Source of the DNA: Candidatus Omnitrophota bacterium
GTDB taxonomy: Bacteria > Omnitrophota > Gorgyraeia > Gygaellales > Profunditerraquicolaceae
Assembly: GCA_043812955.1 (NCBI GenBank)
Contig: JBDRLN010000040.1
Location: 685-64,684, forward strand
Length of the DNA: 64,000 nt
Direction of reading: 5' to 3'
The notes under the pieces are model-generated. The model was not told the origin of the DNA. It ran no database searches and saw only the letters and a program-made list of their open reading frames with translations. Both the position numbers and the translations under genes were made by a program. Position 1 is the stretch's first letter, and every line of letters begins with the position of its first letter. Positions 6,754 through 61,915 of this stretch are shown piece by piece.

Positions 6754-8101
6754 CCCTTCGACTGGGCTTAAGGGTAATGGAGAGCGTAGTCGAAGAGTTA
6801 GGCTAATCACCCTGGGATGTAAAGTAAATCAATATGAGACCCAGGTAATCCGGGAAAATCTTCTTAAGGCCGGATTCAAAGAATCAGAAAAAAACCTTCC
6901 CGCTGATATCTACGTTATTAATACCTGTACAGTTACTCATAAGGCTGATCAGGAATCGCTTTATTATATTAATCGATCAAGGCGTCTTAACCCCAAAGCG
7001 AAAATTATTGTAACCGGATGCCTGGCTGAATTGGATAAACGGATTATTTCCCGCCAAAAAGGAATAAGCCTCATTGTTAAGAATAAAGATAAATATAGAA
7101 TAGCTAAGTTGCTAAAAGGTTCAGGCTCTAACAATGGCTCAAATATAACCGGTTTTCATAAACATACCCGGGCATTTCTTAAGATCCAGGATGGCTGTGA
7201 TAATTTTTGTACTTATTGCAAGGTTCCGCTGGTCCGGGGCGCTTCCCGCAGCCGGCCATTAAGCGAAATACTGGAAGAAGCCCAGGCTTTAGTGAAAAAT
7301 GGTTTTAAAGAAATAGTCTTGACCGGAATATGCCTAGGGTCGTATGGAAAAGATGTGGGTAGAGGTAAAGGTAGAGGTAAAGGTAGAGGTAAAGGCATAG
7401 ATTTAGTTGGGTTAATTAAAGAGCTGGAAAAAATAAAGGGGTTAATCCGGATTCGCTTGAGTTCTATTGAGGCCAAAGATGTAACGGATGAGCTTATTGG
7501 CAGGATAGCTAAATCTAAAAAATTATGCCGGCACCTGCATATACCTATTCAAAGCGGAGATAACCAGATCTTAAAGGCGATGAACCGTAAATATTCCCGT
7601 CAGGATTACCTGGGCCTGGTCAGAAAGATTAAAAATAATATTGCGGATATTGCTATTACTACCGATTGTTTAGTCGGTTTTCCCGGGGAAAGAGAAGATA
7701 ATTTTCAGAATACCGTGGATTTAGTTAAAGAGATAGTTCCTCTAAAAGTGCATATATTTCCTTATAGTGAAAGAAAAGCCACTTCGGCCTATAATTTAAA
7801 AGATAAGATCCCATCCAATATTGTCAGGGACAGGATGATTTACCTTAAAATAATTGCTAATAAATGCGCTTTAGAGTTCCGGAAGAAATTTCTCGATAAG
7901 AGGATGGATGTTTTAATTGAAGGGATGGTCAAGGGTAGCCAAGGTCTTTGGCAGGGCCATACTGATAATTACCTTAAAGTCATGGTAACATCTGATAAGG
8001 ATATCCGCAATCGCATCCTATTGGTTAAGTTAAAAGATATAAAAAGGGACAGCGACTATTTTCTTGCGTCAAAAAGGAAACGGGGTCAGAATTATTTTTA
8101 G
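6740..8101 (+). CDS. mtaB: MiaB-family methylthiotransferase (MtaB-like), carrying an internal (GRGK)3 insertion
   Basis: N-terminal MTTase domain (ITLGCKVNQYETQ), radical SAM CDNFCTYC and a TRAM-like C-terminus. The 3' end reads into the left REP half. Confidence 0.85.
   Translation: MKTANPSTGLKGNGERSRRVRLITLGCKVNQYETQVIRENLLKAGFKESEKNLPADIYVINTCTVTHKADQESLYYINRSRRLNPKAKIIVTGCLAELDKRIISRQKGISLIVKNKDKYRIAKLLKGSGSNNGSNITGFHKHTRAFLKIQDGCDNFCTYCKVPLVRGASRSRPLSEILEEAQALVKNGFKEIVLTGICLGSYGKDVGRGKGRGKGRGKGIDLVGLIKELEKIKGLIRIRLSSIEAKDVTDELIGRIAKSKKLCRHLHIPIQSGDNQILKAMNRKYSRQDYLGLVRKIKNNIADIAITTDCLVGFPGEREDNFQNTVDLVKEIVPLKVHIFPYSERKATSAYNLKDKIPSNIVRDRMIYLKIIANKCALEFRKKFLDKRMDVLIEGMVKGSQGLWQGHTDNYLKVMVTSDKDIRNRILLVKLKDIKRDSDYFLASKRKRGQNYF
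7358..7393 (+). repeat. In-frame minisatellite (GGTAGAGGTAAA)x3 inside mtaB
   Basis: Three exact 12-nt copies encoding GRGKGRGKGRGK. Related GGTARAGGTA repeats occur in intergenic DNA at 16231-16261 and 58713-58807. Confidence 0.85.
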
Positions 8102-8852
8102 TTAGATTTTCCCTTCTTATACGTCTATTAATATTAGAAGGGAGGATTTTATGGCTAGAAGACCGCGTTTATTTGTATCTGGTATACCCTACCACGTTGT
8201 TCAGCGAGGCAATAATAAAATTCCTATTTTTTTATCTGATCAGGATTACCGTTTCTTTTTAGATGTACTTCAAGAAGCCAAATCTAAACACCCATGTTTT
8301 ATTTATAGTTATTGTCTGATGCCTAACCATTTTCATTTACTTATTGAACCCAAGGAAGAAAATAATGTCAGTCTATTAATAAAGTTATTGGGAGCTAAAT
8401 ATGTGAGATATATCAATAAAAACTATGAACGTTCAGGCACTCTATGGGAAGGCCGCTTCAAATGCTCATTGATTGATAAGGAGTTATATTTTTTAACCGT
8501 TCTTCGTTATATTGAAATGAATCCGGTAAGGGCTGGCATAGTTAATTCTCCGGAGTTGTATCGGTGGTCGAGTTATCGGGTCAGGGCAATTGGTGAAAGA
8601 AGTTTTATTGTAGATATGGATCCTTGGTATGATAACCTAGGTTCTAATACAGAAGAACGTCAAAATAAATATCGGCAATTCTTCCAAAATTTAATACCTG
8701 ATCCCGCTTTGCACCTTCTAAGAGAAATGACAAATAAGAATGGTATCGTAGGCAGTATAAATTTTAAATCACGGATTGAACAATCTATTCATAAAGAAAT
8801 TGTTATAAGGTCAGCTGGTAGGCCAAAGAACGAAAAATAATTCTGACCCCAT
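8082..8852 (+). mobile_element. REP-associated tyrosine transposase (RAYT) flanked by the two halves of a REP palindrome
   Basis: GGGGTCAGAATTATTTTT at 8082-8099 and AAAAATAATTCTGACCCCA at 8834-8852 are reverse complements. The same palindrome occurs uninterrupted at 13897-13938 and 44418-44474. Confidence 0.8.
8151..8840 (+). CDS. rayT: IS200/IS605-like Y1 transposase of the RAYT type (Transposase_17)
   Basis: HUH motif NHFHLLIEP and catalytic Tyr region YVRYINKNYERSGTLWEGRF. 229 aa. The stop codon lies inside the right REP half. Confidence 0.85.
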   Translation: MARRPRLFVSGIPYHVVQRGNNKIPIFLSDQDYRFFLDVLQEAKSKHPCFIYSYCLMPNHFHLLIEPKEENNVSLLIKLLGAKYVRYINKNYERSGTLWEGRFKCSLIDKELYFLTVLRYIEMNPVRAGIVNSPELYRWSSYRVRAIGERSFIVDMDPWYDNLGSNTEERQNKYRQFFQNLIPDPALHLLREMTNKNGIVGSINFKSRIEQSIHKEIVIRSAGRPKNEK

Positions 8853-9028: not shown

Positions 9029-9083
9029 GGGACGTCTCTATTTTCCTTAAATCCGAGGGGGCGAGAAAATAGAAACGTCCCCT
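9028..9083. repeat. Palindromic element GGGGACGTCTCTATTTTCC ... GAAAATAGAAACGTCCCC (family copy 1)
   Basis: Perfect 19-bp arms. The same family occurs at 13788-13842. Confidence 0.6.
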
Positions 9084-9090
9084 ATTAATA

Positions 9091-13784: not shown

Positions 13785-13787
13785 AAA

Positions 13788-13842
13788 AGGGGACGTTTCT
13801 ATTTTTTCGTTTGGGCAAATCTAAAAAATAGAAACGTCCCCT
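13788..13842. terminator. Palindromic element / bidirectional terminator (GGGGACGTTTCTATTTTTT ... AAAAAATAGAAACGTCCCC)
   Basis: 19-bp arms flanked by an A-run and a T-run. Same family as 9028-9083. Confidence 0.6.
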
Positions 13843-13896
13843 TTTTAGTTTCTGATTGACACCTGCCTAAAACAGTGGTATATTACACAACACTAT

Positions 13897-13938
13897 TGGG
13901 GTCAGAATTATTTTTTCTAAAATATAATTCTGACCCCA
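13897..13938. repeat. Intact REP palindrome of the RAYT-associated family
   Basis: GGGGTCAGAATTATTTTTT, a 9-nt loop, then AATTCTGACCCC. Confidence 0.75.
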
Positions 13939-13966
13939 TTTTAAGACAGGAAAGGAGATGATATTA

Positions 13967-15721: not shown

Positions 15722-15778
15722 TTTCGGTGTTCGGGTTTCGGCCATAGGCCGCTAACAGCTAACAGCTAACTAAACCAT

Positions 15779-16210: not shown

Positions 16211-16230
16211 TTAATCAAAAAACTTAATTA

Positions 16231-16261
16231 GGTATAGGTAAAGGTATAGGTAGAGGTAGAG
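16231..16261. repeat. GGTATAGGTAAAGGTATAGGTAGAGGTAGAG microsatellite-like repeat, intergenic copy
   Basis: Same GGTARAGGTA unit as the mtaB in-frame repeat. Confidence 0.7.
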
Positions 16262-16281
16262 ATTTATTCAATAGGCAGAGT

Positions 16282-25189: not shown

Positions 25190-25471
25190 GCGGGTGTAGT
25201 TTCCCGCCGGGCTATAGAATTGTGGGCGGGATCCCGACTGTTCAAAGTCAAGGTCGGGACATCGGTAGAGCACCAGCTTCCTCCCGGCGCAGACATGAAT
25301 TGGGGTCGGGATCACGACTATCCAGAAATAAGTGTCGTGTCAAGCTGTATGATAATTTGCGGGTGTAGTTCATCGGTAGAACACCAGCTTCCTCCCGACG
25401 CAGACATGAATTGGGGTCGGGATCACGCCTAGGCTCAGGTGGGTGGCGTGTCAAGCTGGTGAATACGATCT
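25190..25471 (+). repeat. Two tandem degenerate copies of the tRNA-Gly 5' half, each interrupted by GC-rich hairpin inserts
   Basis: GCGGGTGTAGTT...CCAGCTTCC recurs at 25190 and 25357, identical to the 5' half of the downstream tRNA. Inserts: TCCCGRCGCAGACATGAATTGGGGTCGGGA, plus a 60-nt double hairpin in copy 1. Confidence 0.65.
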
Positions 25472-25542
25472 GCGGGTGTAGTTCAATGGTAGAATGGCAG
25501 CTTCCCAAGCTGTATATGGCGGTTCGATTCCGCTCACCCGCT
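25472..25542 (+). tRNA. tRNA-Gly (anticodon CCC)
   Basis: Manual fold: acceptor GCGGGTG/CACCCGC, D-arm GTTC..GAAT, anticodon stem GCAGC/GCTGT with loop TTCCCAA, T-arm GGCGG-TTCGATT-CCGCT. No encoded CCA. Confidence 0.85.
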
Positions 25543-28403: not shown

Positions 28404-28411
28404 ACCTGTGT

Positions 28412-28463
28412 CCACCCCGTAGGTGGAGCCCACCTACGGGGTGGAGCCCACCTACGGGGTGGA
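28412..28463. repeat. Tandem palindromic element CCACCCCGTAGGTGGAGCCCACCTACGGGGTGGAG (about 1.5 copies)
   Basis: GC-rich perfect palindrome. A related copy at 54472-54508 overlaps the panB stop. Confidence 0.65.
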
Positions 28464-33809: not shown

Positions 33810-33975
33810 AAGCTTTCCTAGCTTTGCAGCAAGTATTTTCTGCCACTAATTTGTTTGTAATGAATTTGGGTAAATTCCTTTACATTGGTTTAAATTTTAT
33901 AGGGAAAGCTTCTGATTACAGAGATTAAATGCAGATTACACAGATTAATTAGCGACGAAGAATCGCTGGAATCTT

Positions 33976-34046
33976 TTTTCCCGCCATGTTAATTAAAATA
34001 GCTACCGGGATCCCGCCGGCTATAAGATTTGCTTGGCGGGAAAAAT
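33976..34046. repeat. Structured double-hairpin element TTTCCCGCC..CCGGGATCCCGCC..GGCGGGAAA (family copy 2 of 3)
   Basis: Shares the stem sequences TTTCCCGC / GCGGGATCCCG / CGGGAAA with 25199-25260 and 37049-37120, while the loops differ. Confidence 0.5.
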
Positions 34047-34195
34047 CTCCGTAATCAAGTTCTTTCCCTTTTGCTACAAACTTAGGAAAGAACTCTATTT
34101 AAGATTACACAGATTCCTTCGACGCGATTTTAATCTTTTAATCAGAGATTGCTGTATTATTTAGGAATATTTCAAACAATCTCAGATTCAAGGGT

Positions 34196-37002: not shown

Positions 37003-37195
37003 ATAAAGCGAAAAACGAAAAGCGTAAAGCGAAAAGTTGAAGTTAAAAGATTTCCCGCTTGGAATCTGATATTTGTAGGCGGGATCCCGTTTTGTGGCTT
37101 AAGCGTTGGACGGGAAAAACTTTTAGTTTTTCGCTTTCACTTTATTTTTTCGTTTTTCACTTTTAGCTTTGCGCTTTTAACTTTTAACTTTTCAG
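37003..37195. repeat. MITE-like element: roughly 45-70-bp low-complexity inverted arms (AAAGCGAAAA-type) around a double-hairpin core
   Basis: The left arm is purine-rich (AAAGCGAAAAACGAAAAGCG...) and the right arm is its approximate reverse complement. The core at 37049-37120 is family copy 3. It fills the whole guaA-dnaE spacer. Confidence 0.45.
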
Positions 37196-40636: not shown

Positions 40637-40641
40637 ATGCA

Positions 40642-40716
40642 GGGACGGTTATTAAAGACATAAGCTAAAGTGTCCCCTAAAAGGGGACACTTTAAGATCA
40701 GTTTCAGAACCGTCCC
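40642..40716. repeat. Nested palindrome (outer GGGACGGTT..AACCGTCCC, inner AAAGTGTCCCCT..AGGGGACACTTT), terminator-like
   Basis: Same architecture as the copy at 55867-55943. Lies immediately after the dnaE stop. Confidence 0.6.
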
Positions 40717-40791
40717 GGAGTTATAATAACCTGTTGCTGTATATAAAGTTTTGCTAAAAGTGCCGTAAAATAAAAATAATTCGGTTTTTAT

Positions 40792-44404: not shown

Positions 44405-44417
44405 CAATGGGAGAAAT

Positions 44418-44474
44418 GGGGTCAGAATTATTTTTTCAAGTATTTAGACTAAAGAAAAAATAATTCTGATCCCA
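44418..44474. repeat. Intact REP palindrome of the RAYT-associated family, with a 17-nt loop
   Basis: GGGGTCAGAATTATTTTTTC ... AAAAAATAATTCTGATCCCA. Confidence 0.75.
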
Positions 44475-44484
44475 TTTACAGAGC

Positions 44485-48054: not shown

Positions 48055-48232
48055 TAGGGGTCAGGTCCCTTTGATATAACCAATTGCAAGATATGTTGTT
48101 ACAAACAGCCACTTTGCACTTTTTTTATATTAGTCATATCTAATAAAAGTGATAATTGACTAGTCAGAACTTATTGTATCATATAGTGTTGGAGTAAGGG
48201 GACCTGGTCCCCAGTTTGGTCCCCAGTTTACT
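48055..48232. repeat. MITE-like element with about 18-bp imperfect terminal inverted repeats (CTAGGGGTCAGGTCCCTT ... AAGGGGACCTGGTCCCCAG)
   Basis: The two ends are reverse complements with 2 to 3 mismatches and flank a roughly 120-bp AT-rich core. A partial inverted relative lies at 61580-61659. Confidence 0.4.
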
Positions 48233-53637: not shown

Positions 53638-54483
53638 ATGAGCAAAATTACTCCTCAGGATATTTTAGGATTAAAGGGTAAGCGTAAAATTACTATGCTT
53701 ACCGCGTATGATTATCCTTTAGCTTTTTTGATTGATAAAGCAGGTATTGATATTATCCTGGTTGGTGATTCTCTGGCTAACGTGGTTTTAGGTTTAGAGT
53801 CTACCAAAGAAGTCGGGATGTCCGAGATGATTTATCATTCTAAGGCTGTTTCCCGGGCAGTTAAACAGGCCTTGCTGGTAGGGGATATGCCTTATGAATC
53901 TTACCAGGTAAATCCCGCAGAATCAGTTAATAATGCCTTAAGGTTTATTAATGAAGCTAAATGCGCTGCTGTAAAGCTGGAATGGTTTGACCAGTGTTTA
54001 GAAGTAACTGAAAAGATTATTAAATCCGGGATACCGGTAATGGGCCATATCGGGCTTACTCCTCAGACCGCGGATAAACTGGGCGGGTTTAAGGTTCAGG
54101 GCAAAGACGCGCAGGCCGCTAAGAAGTTAATCCAGCAGGCTAAAGATCTTCAAGGATTAGGTTGTTTTTCTATAGTCTTAGAATGTGTTCCGGACCGGAT
54201 AGCCCAAATCATTACCAAGGAACTTAAGATTCCTACTATTGGCATCGGGGCAGGTTTATTCTGCGATGGCCAAGTGCTGGTATCTCACGATATGCTCGGG
54301 CTATTTGATAGGTATAAACCGAAATTCGTTAAGCAATATGTGAATTTATCGGAAAGCATTTTGCAGGCGATAGAGGAATATAAGAGCGAGGTTATAAATA
54401 GCAAATTCCCGGATAAAGAACATAGTTTCAGTATTAGCCAGGAAGAGTTGGATAAGTTAAAGACTGATTTGTCCACCCCGTAG
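53638..54483 (+). CDS. panB: 3-methyl-2-oxobutanoate hydroxymethyltransferase
   Basis: ITMLTAYDYPLAFLIDKAGIDIILVGDSLANVVLG. Confidence 0.9.
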   Translation: MSKITPQDILGLKGKRKITMLTAYDYPLAFLIDKAGIDIILVGDSLANVVLGLESTKEVGMSEMIYHSKAVSRAVKQALLVGDMPYESYQVNPAESVNNALRFINEAKCAAVKLEWFDQCLEVTEKIIKSGIPVMGHIGLTPQTADKLGGFKVQGKDAQAAKKLIQQAKDLQGLGCFSIVLECVPDRIAQIITKELKIPTIGIGAGLFCDGQVLVSHDMLGLFDRYKPKFVKQYVNLSESILQAIEEYKSEVINSKFPDKEHSFSISQEELDKLKTDLSTP

Positions 54484-54508
54484 GTGGAGTCCACCTACGG
54501 GGTGGACA
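54472..54508. repeat. Palindromic element CCACCCCGTAGGTGGAGTCCACCTACGGGGTGGA overlapping the panB stop codon
   Basis: Same family as 28412-28463. It supplies the last codons (LSTP*) of panB. Confidence 0.65.
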
Positions 54509-54559: not shown

Positions 54560-55861
54560 ATGAGCGATTTAATGGAAAAAATTGTTTCTTTGTGTAAGCG
54601 CCGGGGGTTGATTTTTCAGTCTTCTGAGATTTACGGCGGTTTAGCCAATACCTGGGATTACGGCCCTTTCGGCATCGAATTAAAGAATAATATTAAGTTC
54701 GCCTGGTGGAAGGCCAACGTCCATAATAGGTATGATATATTGGGTATGGATGCTTCTATACTTATGCATCCTAAGGTCTGGGAGGCTTCCGGCCATGTCC
54801 AGAATTTTTACGACCTGAAGAGCGACTGCAAGTCCTGTAAAAAACGTTTTAAAACCGCTGATCTGAAAAACAAACTTAAGTGCCCGGAGTGCGGTTCGGA
54901 ATTAACTGAGGGCCGGCAGTTTAATCTGATGTTTGAAACTCATCAGGGAGCTGTTGACGCAGAAGCGGATTTAATTTACCTCAGGCCGGAAACAGCCCAG
55001 GGGATGTTGGTAAATTTTGCCAATATCCTGGACTCCCGTCATCCCAAACTACCGTTTGGCCTGGCCCAGATCGGAAAATCATTTCGCAATGAAATAACCC
55101 CGGGTAATTTTATCTTCCGGACCCGGGAATTTGAACAGATGGAGATAGAATATTTTGTCCGGCCGCAGGATGCGGATAAGTATTATCAATCCTGGGTTGA
55201 AGAGAGGTTTAACTGGTATATCGGTTTAGGAATTAAAAAAGAGAATATCCGCAAGCGCGAACATGGCCAAGATGAGCTGGCGCATTATGCCCTGGCTTGC
55301 ACAGATATTGAATATAATTTTCCGATAGGCTGGTCAGAGCTGGAAGGCATTGCCAACCGCAGTGATTTTGACTTAAAGCAGCATTCCCAATTTAGCGGAA
55401 AAGAATTGAAATATTTTGACGAAACAACCAAAGAGAAATTTTATCCTTTTATCATTGAGCCTTCTGCGGGAGTAGATAGAAGTTTGTTGGCGTTTTTAGT
55501 TGATGCCTATCACGAGGAAAAAGTCAAAGAGGACACCCGGGTAGTTTTAAAATTAAATAAAGGGCTGGCTCCGGTAAAAGCGGCAGTGCTGCCGTTATTA
55601 AAGAACCGCAGCCCAATCGTGGAATTGGCTAAAAAAATAGCCGGGGATCTAAAAAAGGATGTTTACGCGGTTTATGATGATACCGCGGCTATCGGAAAGT
55701 TGTACCGCCGGCAAGATGAAGTAGGCACTCCTTATTGTATTACGGTTGACGTGCAGTCTTTAGAGGACCAGCAGGTAACAGTCCGGGACAGGAATACAAT
55801 GTTGCAGGAACGCATTAGGGTAGACAGAGTCAAAGAATATATTTTAGGTAAATTAAAATAA
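54560..55861 (+). CDS. glyQS: Glycine--tRNA ligase (alpha2 homodimeric type)
   Basis: MSDLMEKIVSLCKRRGLIFQSSEIYGGLANTWDYGPFG. ATG at 54560; the ORF track starts upstream at 54521. Confidence 0.9.
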   Translation: MSDLMEKIVSLCKRRGLIFQSSEIYGGLANTWDYGPFGIELKNNIKFAWWKANVHNRYDILGMDASILMHPKVWEASGHVQNFYDLKSDCKSCKKRFKTADLKNKLKCPECGSELTEGRQFNLMFETHQGAVDAEADLIYLRPETAQGMLVNFANILDSRHPKLPFGLAQIGKSFRNEITPGNFIFRTREFEQMEIEYFVRPQDADKYYQSWVEERFNWYIGLGIKKENIRKREHGQDELAHYALACTDIEYNFPIGWSELEGIANRSDFDLKQHSQFSGKELKYFDETTKEKFYPFIIEPSAGVDRSLLAFLVDAYHEEKVKEDTRVVLKLNKGLAPVKAAVLPLLKNRSPIVELAKKIAGDLKKDVYAVYDDTAAIGKLYRRQDEVGTPYCITVDVQSLEDQQVTVRDRNTMLQERIRVDRVKEYILGKLK

Positions 55862-55866
55862 AACTT

Positions 55867-55943
55867 GGGGACGGTTCTTTAGCGCAATCTTAAAGTGTCC
55901 CCTTTAAGGGGACACTTTAGCTTCAGCTTGAGAACCGTCCCCT
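55867..55943. repeat. Nested palindrome (outer GGGGACGGTTCT..AGAACCGTCCCC, inner AAAGTGTCCCCTTTAAGGGGACACTTT), terminator-like
   Basis: Second copy of the 40642-40716 architecture, immediately after the glyQS stop. Confidence 0.6.
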
Positions 55944-55976
55944 GATTCAAATTAAAAAAGGAGGGTTATAAAAGCA

Positions 55977-58712: not shown

Positions 58713-58807
58713 TAGGTATAGATATAGGTAAAGGTATAGGTATAGGTACAGAAGAGCACGATTTAATTTTTATGTTTTTCTCTACCCCTACCTTTTCCTC
58801 TACCTAG
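58713..58807. terminator. Long imperfect hairpin built from GGTAKAGGTA-type repeats (terminator-like)
   Basis: GTAGGTATAGATATAGGTAAAGGTATAGGTATAGGTACAG pairs with CTCTACCCCTACCTTTTCCTCTACCTAG. Confidence 0.5.
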
Positions 58808-58827
58808 ATCAATTTAGAGGGAAAAAC

Positions 58828-60247: not shown

Positions 60248-60252
60248 CCTTA

Positions 60253-60312
60253 TGTCAACCCCAGAGGTTGACATAAATACTGTTTACCGTTGTCAACCTC
60301 TGGGGTTGACAA
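60253..60312. repeat. Compound palindrome (GTCAACCCCAGAGGTTGAC ... GTCAACCTCTGGGGTTGAC)
   Basis: Two mutually reverse-complementary copies, each itself terminally palindromic, between apt and tRNA-Arg. Confidence 0.6.
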
Positions 60313-61577: not shown

Positions 61578-61915
61578 TGAAAAGTGCAAAGTGCCCTGAT
61601 GTAACTAGTATATACTTTATAGATTTAGGACTAAGGGACCTGACCCCTAGGGTATGGGGAAATTTTACTATTGGCTAATTTTAAAAAAATACTTGACAAA
61701 TATGCAAGTATATGATAAAAAAGAGAAAATACAGTGAAGTTATATACCGCAGGAGCTGATTAACTTAAGGCTAAGGAGGAGGTGAACAGGCTTAAGCGGC
61801 GCAAATCAGCTGAAGACGGTAAAAAGTAAATGTGAAAATCACCTGGAGGCTTAAAAGCCCCAGATACAATAGAAACGGTATATTTCTAATAAAATAAACA
61901 AAGGAGGAAAAAGAA

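Follow-up and report, generated by a model that had tools for sequence, protein, structure and literature searches.

What is the nature of the short, paired hairpins that lie between the genes of a 64,000-nucleotide stretch of a Candidatus Omnitrophota genome (contig JBDRLN010000040.1; here, the window)? A first-pass annotation had reported three such sites and offered two readings of them – a structured RNA or a transposition-competent hairpin element. We call the element DH, for double hairpin. It is ~60 nt long, and comparison of the window with related genomes indicates that its copies are probably a miniature, palindromic form of mobile DNA, non-autonomous and widely distributed in Candidatus Omnitrophota.

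The plan of the element is simple. Two hairpins of ~25–35 nt (28–32 nt in the three main copies of the window) abut directly, each comprising a 7-bp stem, TCCCGnn/nnCGGGA, and an unconstrained loop; stem pairs 1–5 are fixed, pairs 6–7 are variable, and the whole ranges from 50 to 68 nt. The segment GGGATCCC is the junction at which the feet of the two hairpins meet (CGGGA^TCCCG; here and below a caret marks a junction or insertion point). The GC content of the window is 41.6% and nearly all of its genes lie on the + strand. The pattern TCCCG-N15-25-CGGGATCCCG-N15-25-CGGGA matches it exactly three times, at copies 1–3, and gave no match in 100 dinucleotide shuffles; CGGGATCCCG, at one mismatch or fewer, occurs 10 times against 1.55 expected, and all TCCCG..CGGGA hairpins of the window with an interior of 8–40 nt belong to the DH loci. 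The three reported sites are thus real, their limits being refined from 25199-25260, 33976-34046 and 37049-37120 to those tabulated below, and the gene context given for them (ThiC, tRNA-Gly, IMPDH-like, GuaA, DnaE) is correct. The number of copies rises from three to five: a looser single-hairpin regular expression adds 25282-25311 and 25393-25422, and directly after each of these comes another hairpin, whose foot is TCACG/CGTG. Nor are all the loops completely different, as had been stated, given that hairpin 1 of copy 1 resembles hairpin 2 of copy 2 (GGGCTATAGAATTGTG versus GGCTATAAGATTTGCTT).

Copies 1 and 3 are predicted to fold as two adjacent hairpins; for copy 2 one long hairpin is favoured, because one 7-mer is common to all four arms. 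Folding z-scores of the hairpins run from -2.6 to -5.1. All five copies are non-coding, copy 3 lying in the guaA-dnaE spacer, where inverted heptamer-like arrays have it at their apex, and the neighbouring genes encode ThiC, an M23/LysM peptidase, AroB, the IMPDH-like protein, GuaA, DnaE and a class II glycyl-tRNA synthetase (GlyRS). The ThiC protein matches one from a metagenome-assembled genome labelled Candidatus Omnitrophota at 100% identity.

Evidence that DH is an inserted entity comes from sites that are filled in one genome and empty in another (loci of relatives are cited by our own handles, L008 and so on). The guaA-dnaE spacer measures 193 nt in the window versus 13–25 nt, empty, in L123, L124 and L127, and in L125 and L126 different palindromes stand in place of DH. 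Similarly, the aroB-IMPDH spacer spans 494 nt in the window versus 111 nt, without DH, in L204; a promoter-like TTGACA..TATAAAAT is common to both, and a ~380-nt block (33810-34190) that includes copy 2 is extra in the window and absent from L204. Relatives at 74% ThiC identity (L207-L210) have a single plain intact tRNA-Gly(CCC) in the thiC-M23 peptidase interval, where the window carries truncated tRNA-Gly units, A and B, with DH inside them. Within the window itself the D arm of unit A reads GTAGTT, 58-nt DH, CATCGG, and that of unit B is the uninterrupted GTAGTT^CATCGG: the insertion of copy 1 was therefore precise and without duplication. Deletion of the anticodon-loop copies likewise gives back CTTCCCAAG exactly, and the GlyRS genes of the window and of L008, which is syntenic at 74–78% nucleotide identity, differ by exactly 60 nt, running from TCCCGCC to GGCGGGA. 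A target-site duplication is absent, matching flanks being found in 2/43 copies for 2 nt and in 0/43 for 3 nt. DH is shown by these comparisons to insert exactly from TCCCG to CGGGA without target-site duplication.

The same 43 copies reveal where insertion occurs. T stands at -2 in 32/43 and A at +2 in 32/43, with A at +3 in 28/43; position -1 is T or G and position +1 A or C (TT^CA and TT^AA are examples). The two ends of DH are alike and the flank signal is symmetric. A general preference for the apex of a larger hairpin was considered and rejected: flank complementarity of at least 5 bp was found in 12 copies against 9.7 expected from permuted controls (p ~0.23); such placement holds for copy 3 and the tRNA loops and not for all copies. 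The block around copy 2 has an architecture of its own, with direct repeats of GATTACACAGATT at 33944-33956 and 34104-34116, a further nested imperfect palindrome (AGCGACGAAGAATC ... GATTCCTTCGACGCG), and an end (CAATCTCAGATTCAAG) similar to the sequence preceding its start (GAATAGATTTTAG).

Beyond the window, a scan of species-representative genomes with the bare pattern gave at least 117 loci – a figure that is not a census, and in which the labels of metagenome-assembled genomes (MAGs) may be wrong. Our family counts (loci, and 41, 43 and 53 copies) rest on loci selected for DH, among the matches listed. At least 36 low-GC loci have both stems of 6 bp or more, usually 7, and are true DH copies; they are labelled as Omnitrophota (24), Patescibacteria (5), Planctomycetota (3), 'Gammaproteobacteria' MAGs (2) and unclassified (2). 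The Omnitrophota loci include two from the complete genome of Velamenicoccus archaeovorus LiM, and Candidatus Undivivens is also represented. GC-rich matches in Streptomyces and other Actinomycetota were discarded as chance, their stems being just the 5 bp that the pattern demanded, as were those of viral contigs (four distinct loci, one of them on two contigs, all GC-rich with 5-bp stems).

The stems of true copies carry information beyond the search pattern. For pair counts each hairpin was trimmed to its first and last 10 bases in 41 copies. Pairs 1–5 are invariant and were demanded by the pattern, while pair 6 was used in the selection filter and is hence uninformative; pair 7, which was unselected, is paired in 35/41 and 36/41 copies of the two hairpins, as CG, UA, AU or UG, and pairs 8–10 are paired in just ~30%. 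It follows that a DH stem has 7 bp, with covariation in the last two pairs. The first-pass annotation had anticipated covariation, and it is seen at stem positions 6 and 7; a DNA hairpin that is recognised in single-stranded form would explain it equally well. Outside the stems, the aligned copies have no conserved nucleotides in the loops or at the junction. The covariance-model scan proposed at the outset did recover additional copies, in the window and in relatives. Model R1, built from the 41 copies and run on the window without filters, scored copies 1–3 at 47–58 bits and found the non-seed variants at 25389-25455 (20.4 bits, E 1.5e-4) and 25278-25344 (14.6 bits, E 7e-3), with no others. 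On 619 kb of loci fetched for other reasons it found few sites: the tRNA-Gly-linked copies of L203, L204 and L205, L204 65-129, L142 2636-2702 and a weak mini-copy in L206. Rfam, by comparison, returned two tRNAs alone at gathering thresholds in the window, and nothing relevant to DH up to E = 1.

DH is not confined to spacers. Among relatives (L008, L029, L033, L056, L075, L110, L111 and L117) it lies in frame within Pfam-confirmed open reading frames (ORFs) for LpxK, a P-type ATPase HAD domain, a GlgC-like nucleotidyl transferase, TatD, leucyl-tRNA synthetase (LeuRS), peptide deformylase (Def), a UPF0004 (MiaB/RimO-type) protein and GlyRS; a glycosyltransferase ORF has a single 30-nt hairpin inside. 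Coding copies are found in each of the three reading phases, and either gene strand may carry them. Within long ORFs every copy (9/9) measures 60 or 63 nt, as against multiples of three in 7/32 elsewhere; at one in three, the chance of 9/9 is ~5e-5, and these lengths indicate that the copies are translated, or read through, rather than removed. The GlyRS insert is a 20-residue peptide, SRQAILNEGGIPPAINSLAG (in short, SRQAILNEGGIPP...), present in 13 distinct GlyRS proteins at 81–87% identity, with variants and two shorter in-frame derivatives, and missing from the next 12 GlyRS and from the window. The insert is old and inherited. Other palindromes behave in a comparable manner: GlyRS of L211 (1132-1182) has a different in-frame insert, STAGARLPDGQGSASGR, encoded by a GC-rich palindrome, and GlyRS protein P0132 a further one, NPALSRKNEQSEERKGG. 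The uptake of palindromes into proteins thus looks like a habit of the phylum Omnitrophota. In L008 (1904-2110) the N-terminal part of GlyRS is out of frame with the rest, probably an indel error of long-read assembly and not a real frameshift.

A further feature of the distribution is a strong association with tRNA-gene fragments. Some 24/53 copies (~45%) lie in or beside tRNA genes or fragments, a proportion prone to ascertainment given that the loci were chosen for containing DH. Within tRNA fragments the insertion points are 12^13 (D), 35^36 (anticodon) and 55^56 (T), and the same positions recur in Gly, Glu, Gln, Thr, Pro and Val tRNA genes. Fragments of the 5' part stand upstream, and those of the 3' part downstream, of an intact tRNA gene at a distance of 6–60 nt, and they reach just 7–10 nt past the DH (positions 13–21, 36–43 or 46–55). 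At the Velamenicoccus locus (L015) the sequence that precedes the fragment (caaGTAGATTTCGT) recurs in the short spacer leading into the intact gene (taaGTAGATTTCAT); positions of about -14 to 21 have therefore been duplicated in tandem, the first of the two copies being the one that holds DH. A tRNA intron, whether of the archaeal BHB or the bacterial group I type, was rejected: the host units are without positions 44–76, and an uninterrupted gene lies alongside.

The tRNA-Gly locus exists in two types, CAATGG..GAATGGCAGC..GCTGT (type I) and CATCGG..GAACACCAGC..GCTGG (type II). L206-L210 have type II without a truncated unit (the complete gene is seen in L207-L209). L203 (11366-11548) has an intact gene of type II and a truncated unit of type I; the window (25190-25542) and L204 (11290-11515) have an intact gene of type I and truncated units of type II. 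The truncated unit is never of the same type as the adjacent intact gene, and this swap between close relatives points to recombination or replacement at the locus, not simple duplication.

Other families show similar behaviour. L080 (3900-4200, minus strand) has truncated tRNA-Gly(TCC) units with a hairpin pair of another family at 35^36, TCACCGGAATTTT..AAAAATTCCGGTGA and CACTA..TAGTG, so that the habit of entering tRNA loops is not limited to the TCCCG family; fragments of the tRNA-Gly 3' end lie downstream of its intact gene. In L120 (5077-5795) a tRNA-Arg(CCU)-like gene is split in its anticodon loop by ~650 nt with an ORF, a putative group I intron with a homing-endonuclease gene.

Table. 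DH copies, tRNA units and the empty GlyRS site in the window, and DH-bearing tRNA loci elsewhere.
Feature	Position	Strand	Description
DH copy 1 (58 nt)	25202..25259	+	TCCCGCC-16-GGCGGGA then TCCCGAC-14-GTCGGGA; D arm of tRNA-Gly unit A, positions 12^13
DH variant (59 nt)	25282..25340	+	TCCCGGCGC..GGGGTCGGGA then TCACGAC..GTCGTGT; anticodon loop of unit A, positions 35^36
DH variant (59 nt)	25393..25451	+	TCCCGACGC..GGGGTCGGGA then TCACGCC..GGCGTGT; anticodon loop of unit B, positions 35^36
DH copy 2 (63 nt)	33979..34041	+	TCCCG(CC)-..-CCGGGA then TCCCGCC-17-GGCGGGA; T run before, A run after
DH copy 3 (63 nt)	37053..37115	+	TCCCGCTT-..-AGGCGGGA then TCCCGTTT-..-GGACGGGA; guaA-dnaE spacer
Truncated tRNA-Gly unit A	25190..25348	+	tRNA positions 1-43 only; hosts two DH copies
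Truncated tRNA-Gly unit B	25359..25459	+	positions 1-43; one DH; 42 nt 100% identical to intact L203 tRNA-Gly
Intact tRNA-Gly(CCC)	25472..25542	+	beside the truncated DH-bearing units
Empty DH site in GlyRS gene	54865..54866	+	GATCTG^AAAAAC; filled (60 nt, in frame) in L008 and 12 other GlyRS
tRNA-Gly, L204/L205			truncated unit with DH at 12^13 and 35^36
tRNA-Gly, L203			truncated unit with DH at 35^36 only
tRNA-Gly(TCC), L080 (51% GC MAG)			layout as in the window
tRNA-Glu, L009			DH after D stem and at 35^36
tRNA-Gln, L073			two 5' pieces, DH at 12^13
tRNA-Thr, L015 (Velamenicoccus)			DH-bearing fragments flank gene on both sides
Ser-like tRNA, L044/L104			arrays
tRNA-Pro, L079, L099, L114, L120			3' of intact gene: fragment 46-76, DH in T loop after TT
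tRNA-Val, L050, L072			3' of intact gene: fragment 46-76, DH in T loop after TT

The presence of copies in spacers, at palindrome tips, in pseudo-tRNA loops and, in frame, in coding sequence is most simply explained by a non-autonomous mobile palindrome. The half of the first-pass suggestion that favoured a transposition-competent hairpin is accordingly the one that gained support: relatives hold a large family of copies, orthologous sites can be empty, insertion is precise and duplicates no target, and some copies lie in frame within coding sequence. We envisage that the copies are moved in trans by an enzyme that would recognise the hairpin feet in single-stranded DNA. Insertion would take place at T-rich^A-rich sites, and copies would then be observed only where they can be survived: in spacers, at the tips of other palindromes, in tRNA copies that are truncated and redundant (D, anticodon and T loops), and in coding sequence where their length is a multiple of three. 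Ideal target sequences are present in an intact tRNA gene, namely GTT^CA (D arm), YTTYY^CAA (anticodon loop) and GGTT^CRA (T loop); a hit would not be tolerable there, whereas in a redundant partial copy it would. The copies of the window itself are most likely passengers.

The lack of target duplication and the terminal hairpins suggest a single-strand mechanism of the HUH/Y1 type, and by analogy a transposase of that class – of the type found in IS200/IS605 and in RAYTs, the tyrosine transposases associated with repetitive extragenic palindromic (REP) sequences – is a possible candidate, albeit a doubtful one. Insertions of the IS200/IS605 family are also without target duplication. Against such a mechanism are the symmetric ends of DH, the lack of a fixed target tetranucleotide and the fact that no such gene was seen in the loci searched. 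Neither the 64-kb window nor ~300 kb of DH-bearing loci yielded a RAYT gene. Small ORFs for GIY-YIG nucleases (95–105 aa) occur three times near copies, at L120 4585-4902 and L112 5781-6068 and 7057-7353, immediately upstream of or overlapping tRNA-Pro genes and 1–2 kb from DH; they are not consistently adjacent to it and are a lead only.

Several observations weigh against DH as simple mobile DNA. Pfam searches of 146 ORFs within 2.5 kb of copies showed no enriched transposase or recombinase, those of 10 ORFs beside near-identical Uhrbacteria copies found no transposase, and tblastn queries of IS608, IS200 and RAYT sequence hit just two loci, both from other phyla and both lacking a true DH. 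Copy density nearby is low, the syntenic stretches of L203 and L204 having just the DH of the tRNA-Gly locus and the degenerate copy at L204 65-129, and loops are mostly unrelated among copies of one genome, unlike those of a recently amplified miniature inverted-repeat transposable element (MITE). The regular pairing of DH with partial tandem tRNA duplications is, moreover, not predicted by simple cut-and-paste or peel-and-paste transposition. Finally, stems are better kept than loops. DH DNA in GlyRS of three lineages has changed at ~2/28 stem bases versus ~9/32 loop bases, and the L203 homologue of the copy at 25393-25451 reads TCCCGCC..GGCGGGT versus TCACGCC..GGCGTGT in the window, a compensatory change on both sides of the stem. 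Such preservation implies selection on the hairpin or correction from arm to arm, neither being expected of pure junk; it may also reflect descent from copies that stayed mobile.

An extension of the mobile-element reading would give the tRNA genes a larger part. DH, together with the sister hairpin pairs, would comprise tRNA-parasitic mini-elements. Their insertion into D, anticodon or T loops would be linked mechanistically with a short duplication in tandem, by which an intact gene is restored. The suggestion stems from a recurring geometry – the overhang of 7–10 nt, the spacer repeat of L015, the shared insertion positions and the swap of tRNA-Gly types. A small single-stranded circle comprising DH and a piece of tRNA could, for instance, integrate by homology, and the outcome would resemble that of integrases that carry a tRNA segment, in ~100–170 nt and without a recombinase gene. 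We consider this extension unlikely as it stands.

The same tRNA data lend themselves to a different explanation, under which DH is not independently transposed at all. Its copies would be sites that a site-specific recombinase recognises at tRNA genes, or scars left by its action, with GGCGGGA^TCCCGCC as the recombinase-binding core; an integrative element aimed at the anticodon, T or D stem-loop would restore the gene and leave truncated copies of the tRNA next to it. Integrases that target tRNA genes classically cross over in the anticodon and T loops. The proportion of tRNA-associated copies (24/53), the order of 5' and 3' fragments about the gene, with DH at 12^13, 35^36 or 55^56, and the exchange of tRNA-Gly types between truncated and intact positions in the window versus L203 are likewise as this explanation would have it. 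Yet copies in coding sequence and spacers have no duplicated flank, fragments lie 6–60 nt from the intact gene with no element body between, and DH sits within the loop of the fragment and not between fragment and gene; no integrase adjoins the copies among the 146 + 10 neighbouring ORFs, and the spacer of L015, in repeating upstream sequence, indicates a plain tandem duplication and not an att (attachment) junction. We regard recombination scars as improbable. Slightly less probable again is that DH is a domesticated host motif, DNA or RNA – a protein-binding palindrome (GGCGGGATCCCGCC), an mRNA stabiliser or a processing signal – whose stems are kept by selection. Protein-binding, mRNA-stabilising or processing roles have been proposed for some copies of REPs and of bacterial interspersed mosaic elements (BIMEs). 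Stems conserved through compensatory changes while loops drift, stable hairpins (the z-scores given above) and the placement of window copies between operons, before IMPDH-like/guaA and before dnaE, are what a host function would produce; positions in spacers are nevertheless not conserved among close relatives, and the same element lies inside unrelated coding sequences and pieces of pseudo-tRNA. Intrinsic terminators can be discounted, as no T run follows the hairpins on either strand: copies 2 and 3 have, on both strands, a T run before and an A run after, and no hairpin is followed by a U run.

The structured RNA of the first-pass annotation fared worse. Two covarying helices with free loops are consistent with a small RNA or a cis-regulatory RNA, and the wobble pairs of copy 3 and of 25282-25311 are G-T on the + strand, the strand of nearly all window genes. 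But Rfam has no match even at E = 1, the alignment has no conserved nucleotides outside the stems, and DH is nearly its own reverse complement, which leaves it with no defined strand; in addition, copies in frame, and translated, occur in at least 8 different and unrelated protein families on either gene strand, the orthologous sites in relatives are empty, and presence is variable among close relatives. A structured RNA is thus very improbable. That the copies are independent, chance GC-rich palindromes is a notion already refuted. Chance matches to the bare pattern do arise in GC-rich genomes; their stems do not reach the 7 bp of true copies, the window has three matches where none of 100 shuffles had any, and the family is concentrated in one phylum, Omnitrophota (among the matches listed).

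The window contains much else that is repetitive. Besides DH it has at least five families of palindromic repeats: GGGGACGTTTCTATTTT; TGGGGTCAGAATTATTTT, which recurs in L126 within the guaA-dnaE spacer; TAAAGTGTCCCCTAAAAGGGGACACTTTA nested in GGGACGGTTCT; TGTCCACCCCGTAGGTGGAG; and GGGGTCAGGTCCC. Their sites are 9030-9085, 13785-13850; 8081-8110, 13897-13946, 44417-44482; 40640-40720, 55862-55945; 28409-28463, 54470-54506; 48057-48075, 48195-48215, 61640-61660; and 60250-60310. The genome is unusually rich in palindromic elements. Many spacers also comprise tandem units of 6–7 nt (AAAGCGA, GGTAKA, CTAACAG, TAGTTCA) followed by units of the reverse complement, forming long inverted repeats of low complexity; examples from the window are 37003-37050 with 37120-37195, 7345-7405, 16230-16266, 58713-58810 and 15745-15775, and from relatives L125 5540-5635, L203 11285-11365 and L206 3590-3680. 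The sequence of the unit varies from spacer to spacer and, at the same position, from species to species. Elsewhere in the window two adjacent small genes for cold-shock-like proteins (870-1070 and 1160-1365; KGYGFI / RGFGFI motifs), with a homologous pair in L120, fall in a 717-nt gap left by the 90-aa ORF filter.

If DH is what we propose, then Omnitrophota – a large and almost uncultured phylum – has its own family of ultra-small mobile palindromes, one that rewrites spacers, scars the surroundings of tRNA genes and adds peptides of 20–21 residues to the essential proteins GlyRS, LeuRS and peptide deformylase. After Rickettsia, it would be the second, and an independent, example of proteins that have taken up selfish palindromes. 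Partial duplications linked to tRNA genes could reveal an undescribed mechanism of insertion or repair, and the combination of a fixed 5-bp foot with a free loop would be a clean substrate for finding the enzyme that moves it. Model R1, for its part, is a compact marker for genome annotation and helps to avoid false calls of small RNAs or pseudogenes.

How does DH compare with elements already known? We found no description of it among the papers searched on Omnitrophota repeats, on Velamenicoccus or on MITEs in tRNA loops, including a 2026 survey of complete Omnitrophota genomes. Classical MITEs (of the DDE kind) share with DH their small size, lack of autonomy and terminal inverted repeats (TCCCGCC...GGCGGGA in DH, up to 10–11 bp in some copies), but they have target-site duplications, which DH has not, and are typically larger. 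Miniature derivatives of IS200/IS605 insert, like DH, without target-site duplication; theirs, however, are asymmetric ends and insertion 3' of a specific tetra- or pentanucleotide, whereas the ends of DH are alike and its flanks symmetric. The small dispersed repeats (SDR) of Nostoc and related cyanobacteria, which Elhai et al. reportedly described in Genome Res in 2008 as very small, hairpin-forming mobile repeats of ~21–27 nt that nest in other repeats, differ from DH in sequence, phylum and size. Integrases that target tRNA genes leave partial tRNA copies at att sites, with breakpoints at the anticodon and T stem-loops. The DH loci are similar in having such copies, with the same breakpoints, beside an intact gene; they differ in that fragments lie 6–60 nt from the gene with no integrated element between and DH inside the loop of the fragment.

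Two systems come closer. REPINs, which are REP doublets forming hairpins, are extragenic, comprise two inverted REPs with a spacer of ~70–110 bp and occur next to a RAYT gene (PMC3116915). DH resembles the REP doublet, REPIN and BIME in being a doublet of hairpin palindromes with conserved arms and a less conserved interior, non-autonomous and predicted to form a hairpin in single-stranded DNA (PMC3116915). It departs from REPINs in that its hairpins abut without a spacer, one 7-mer is present in all four arms and copies lie in coding sequence, where the REPIN is strictly extragenic; it is also without a GTAG-type 5' tetranucleotide, and no RAYT or Y1 gene was found in the loci searched. Rickettsia palindromic elements (RPE) measure ~100–150 bp and are confined to Rickettsia (PMC10969869). 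Like DH they are short palindromic repeats without genes, found in spacers and, in frame, in unrelated housekeeping genes, where they are translated and inherited (PMC10969869); DH too forms stable hairpins, its in-frame insertion being seen in relatives and not in the window. With its 50–68 nt, two separate hairpins, invariant 5-bp foot, free loops, Omnitrophota host and link to tRNA fragments, DH is set apart from RPE by description. DH is apparently undescribed, and its closest analogues are RPE and REP/REPIN doublets.

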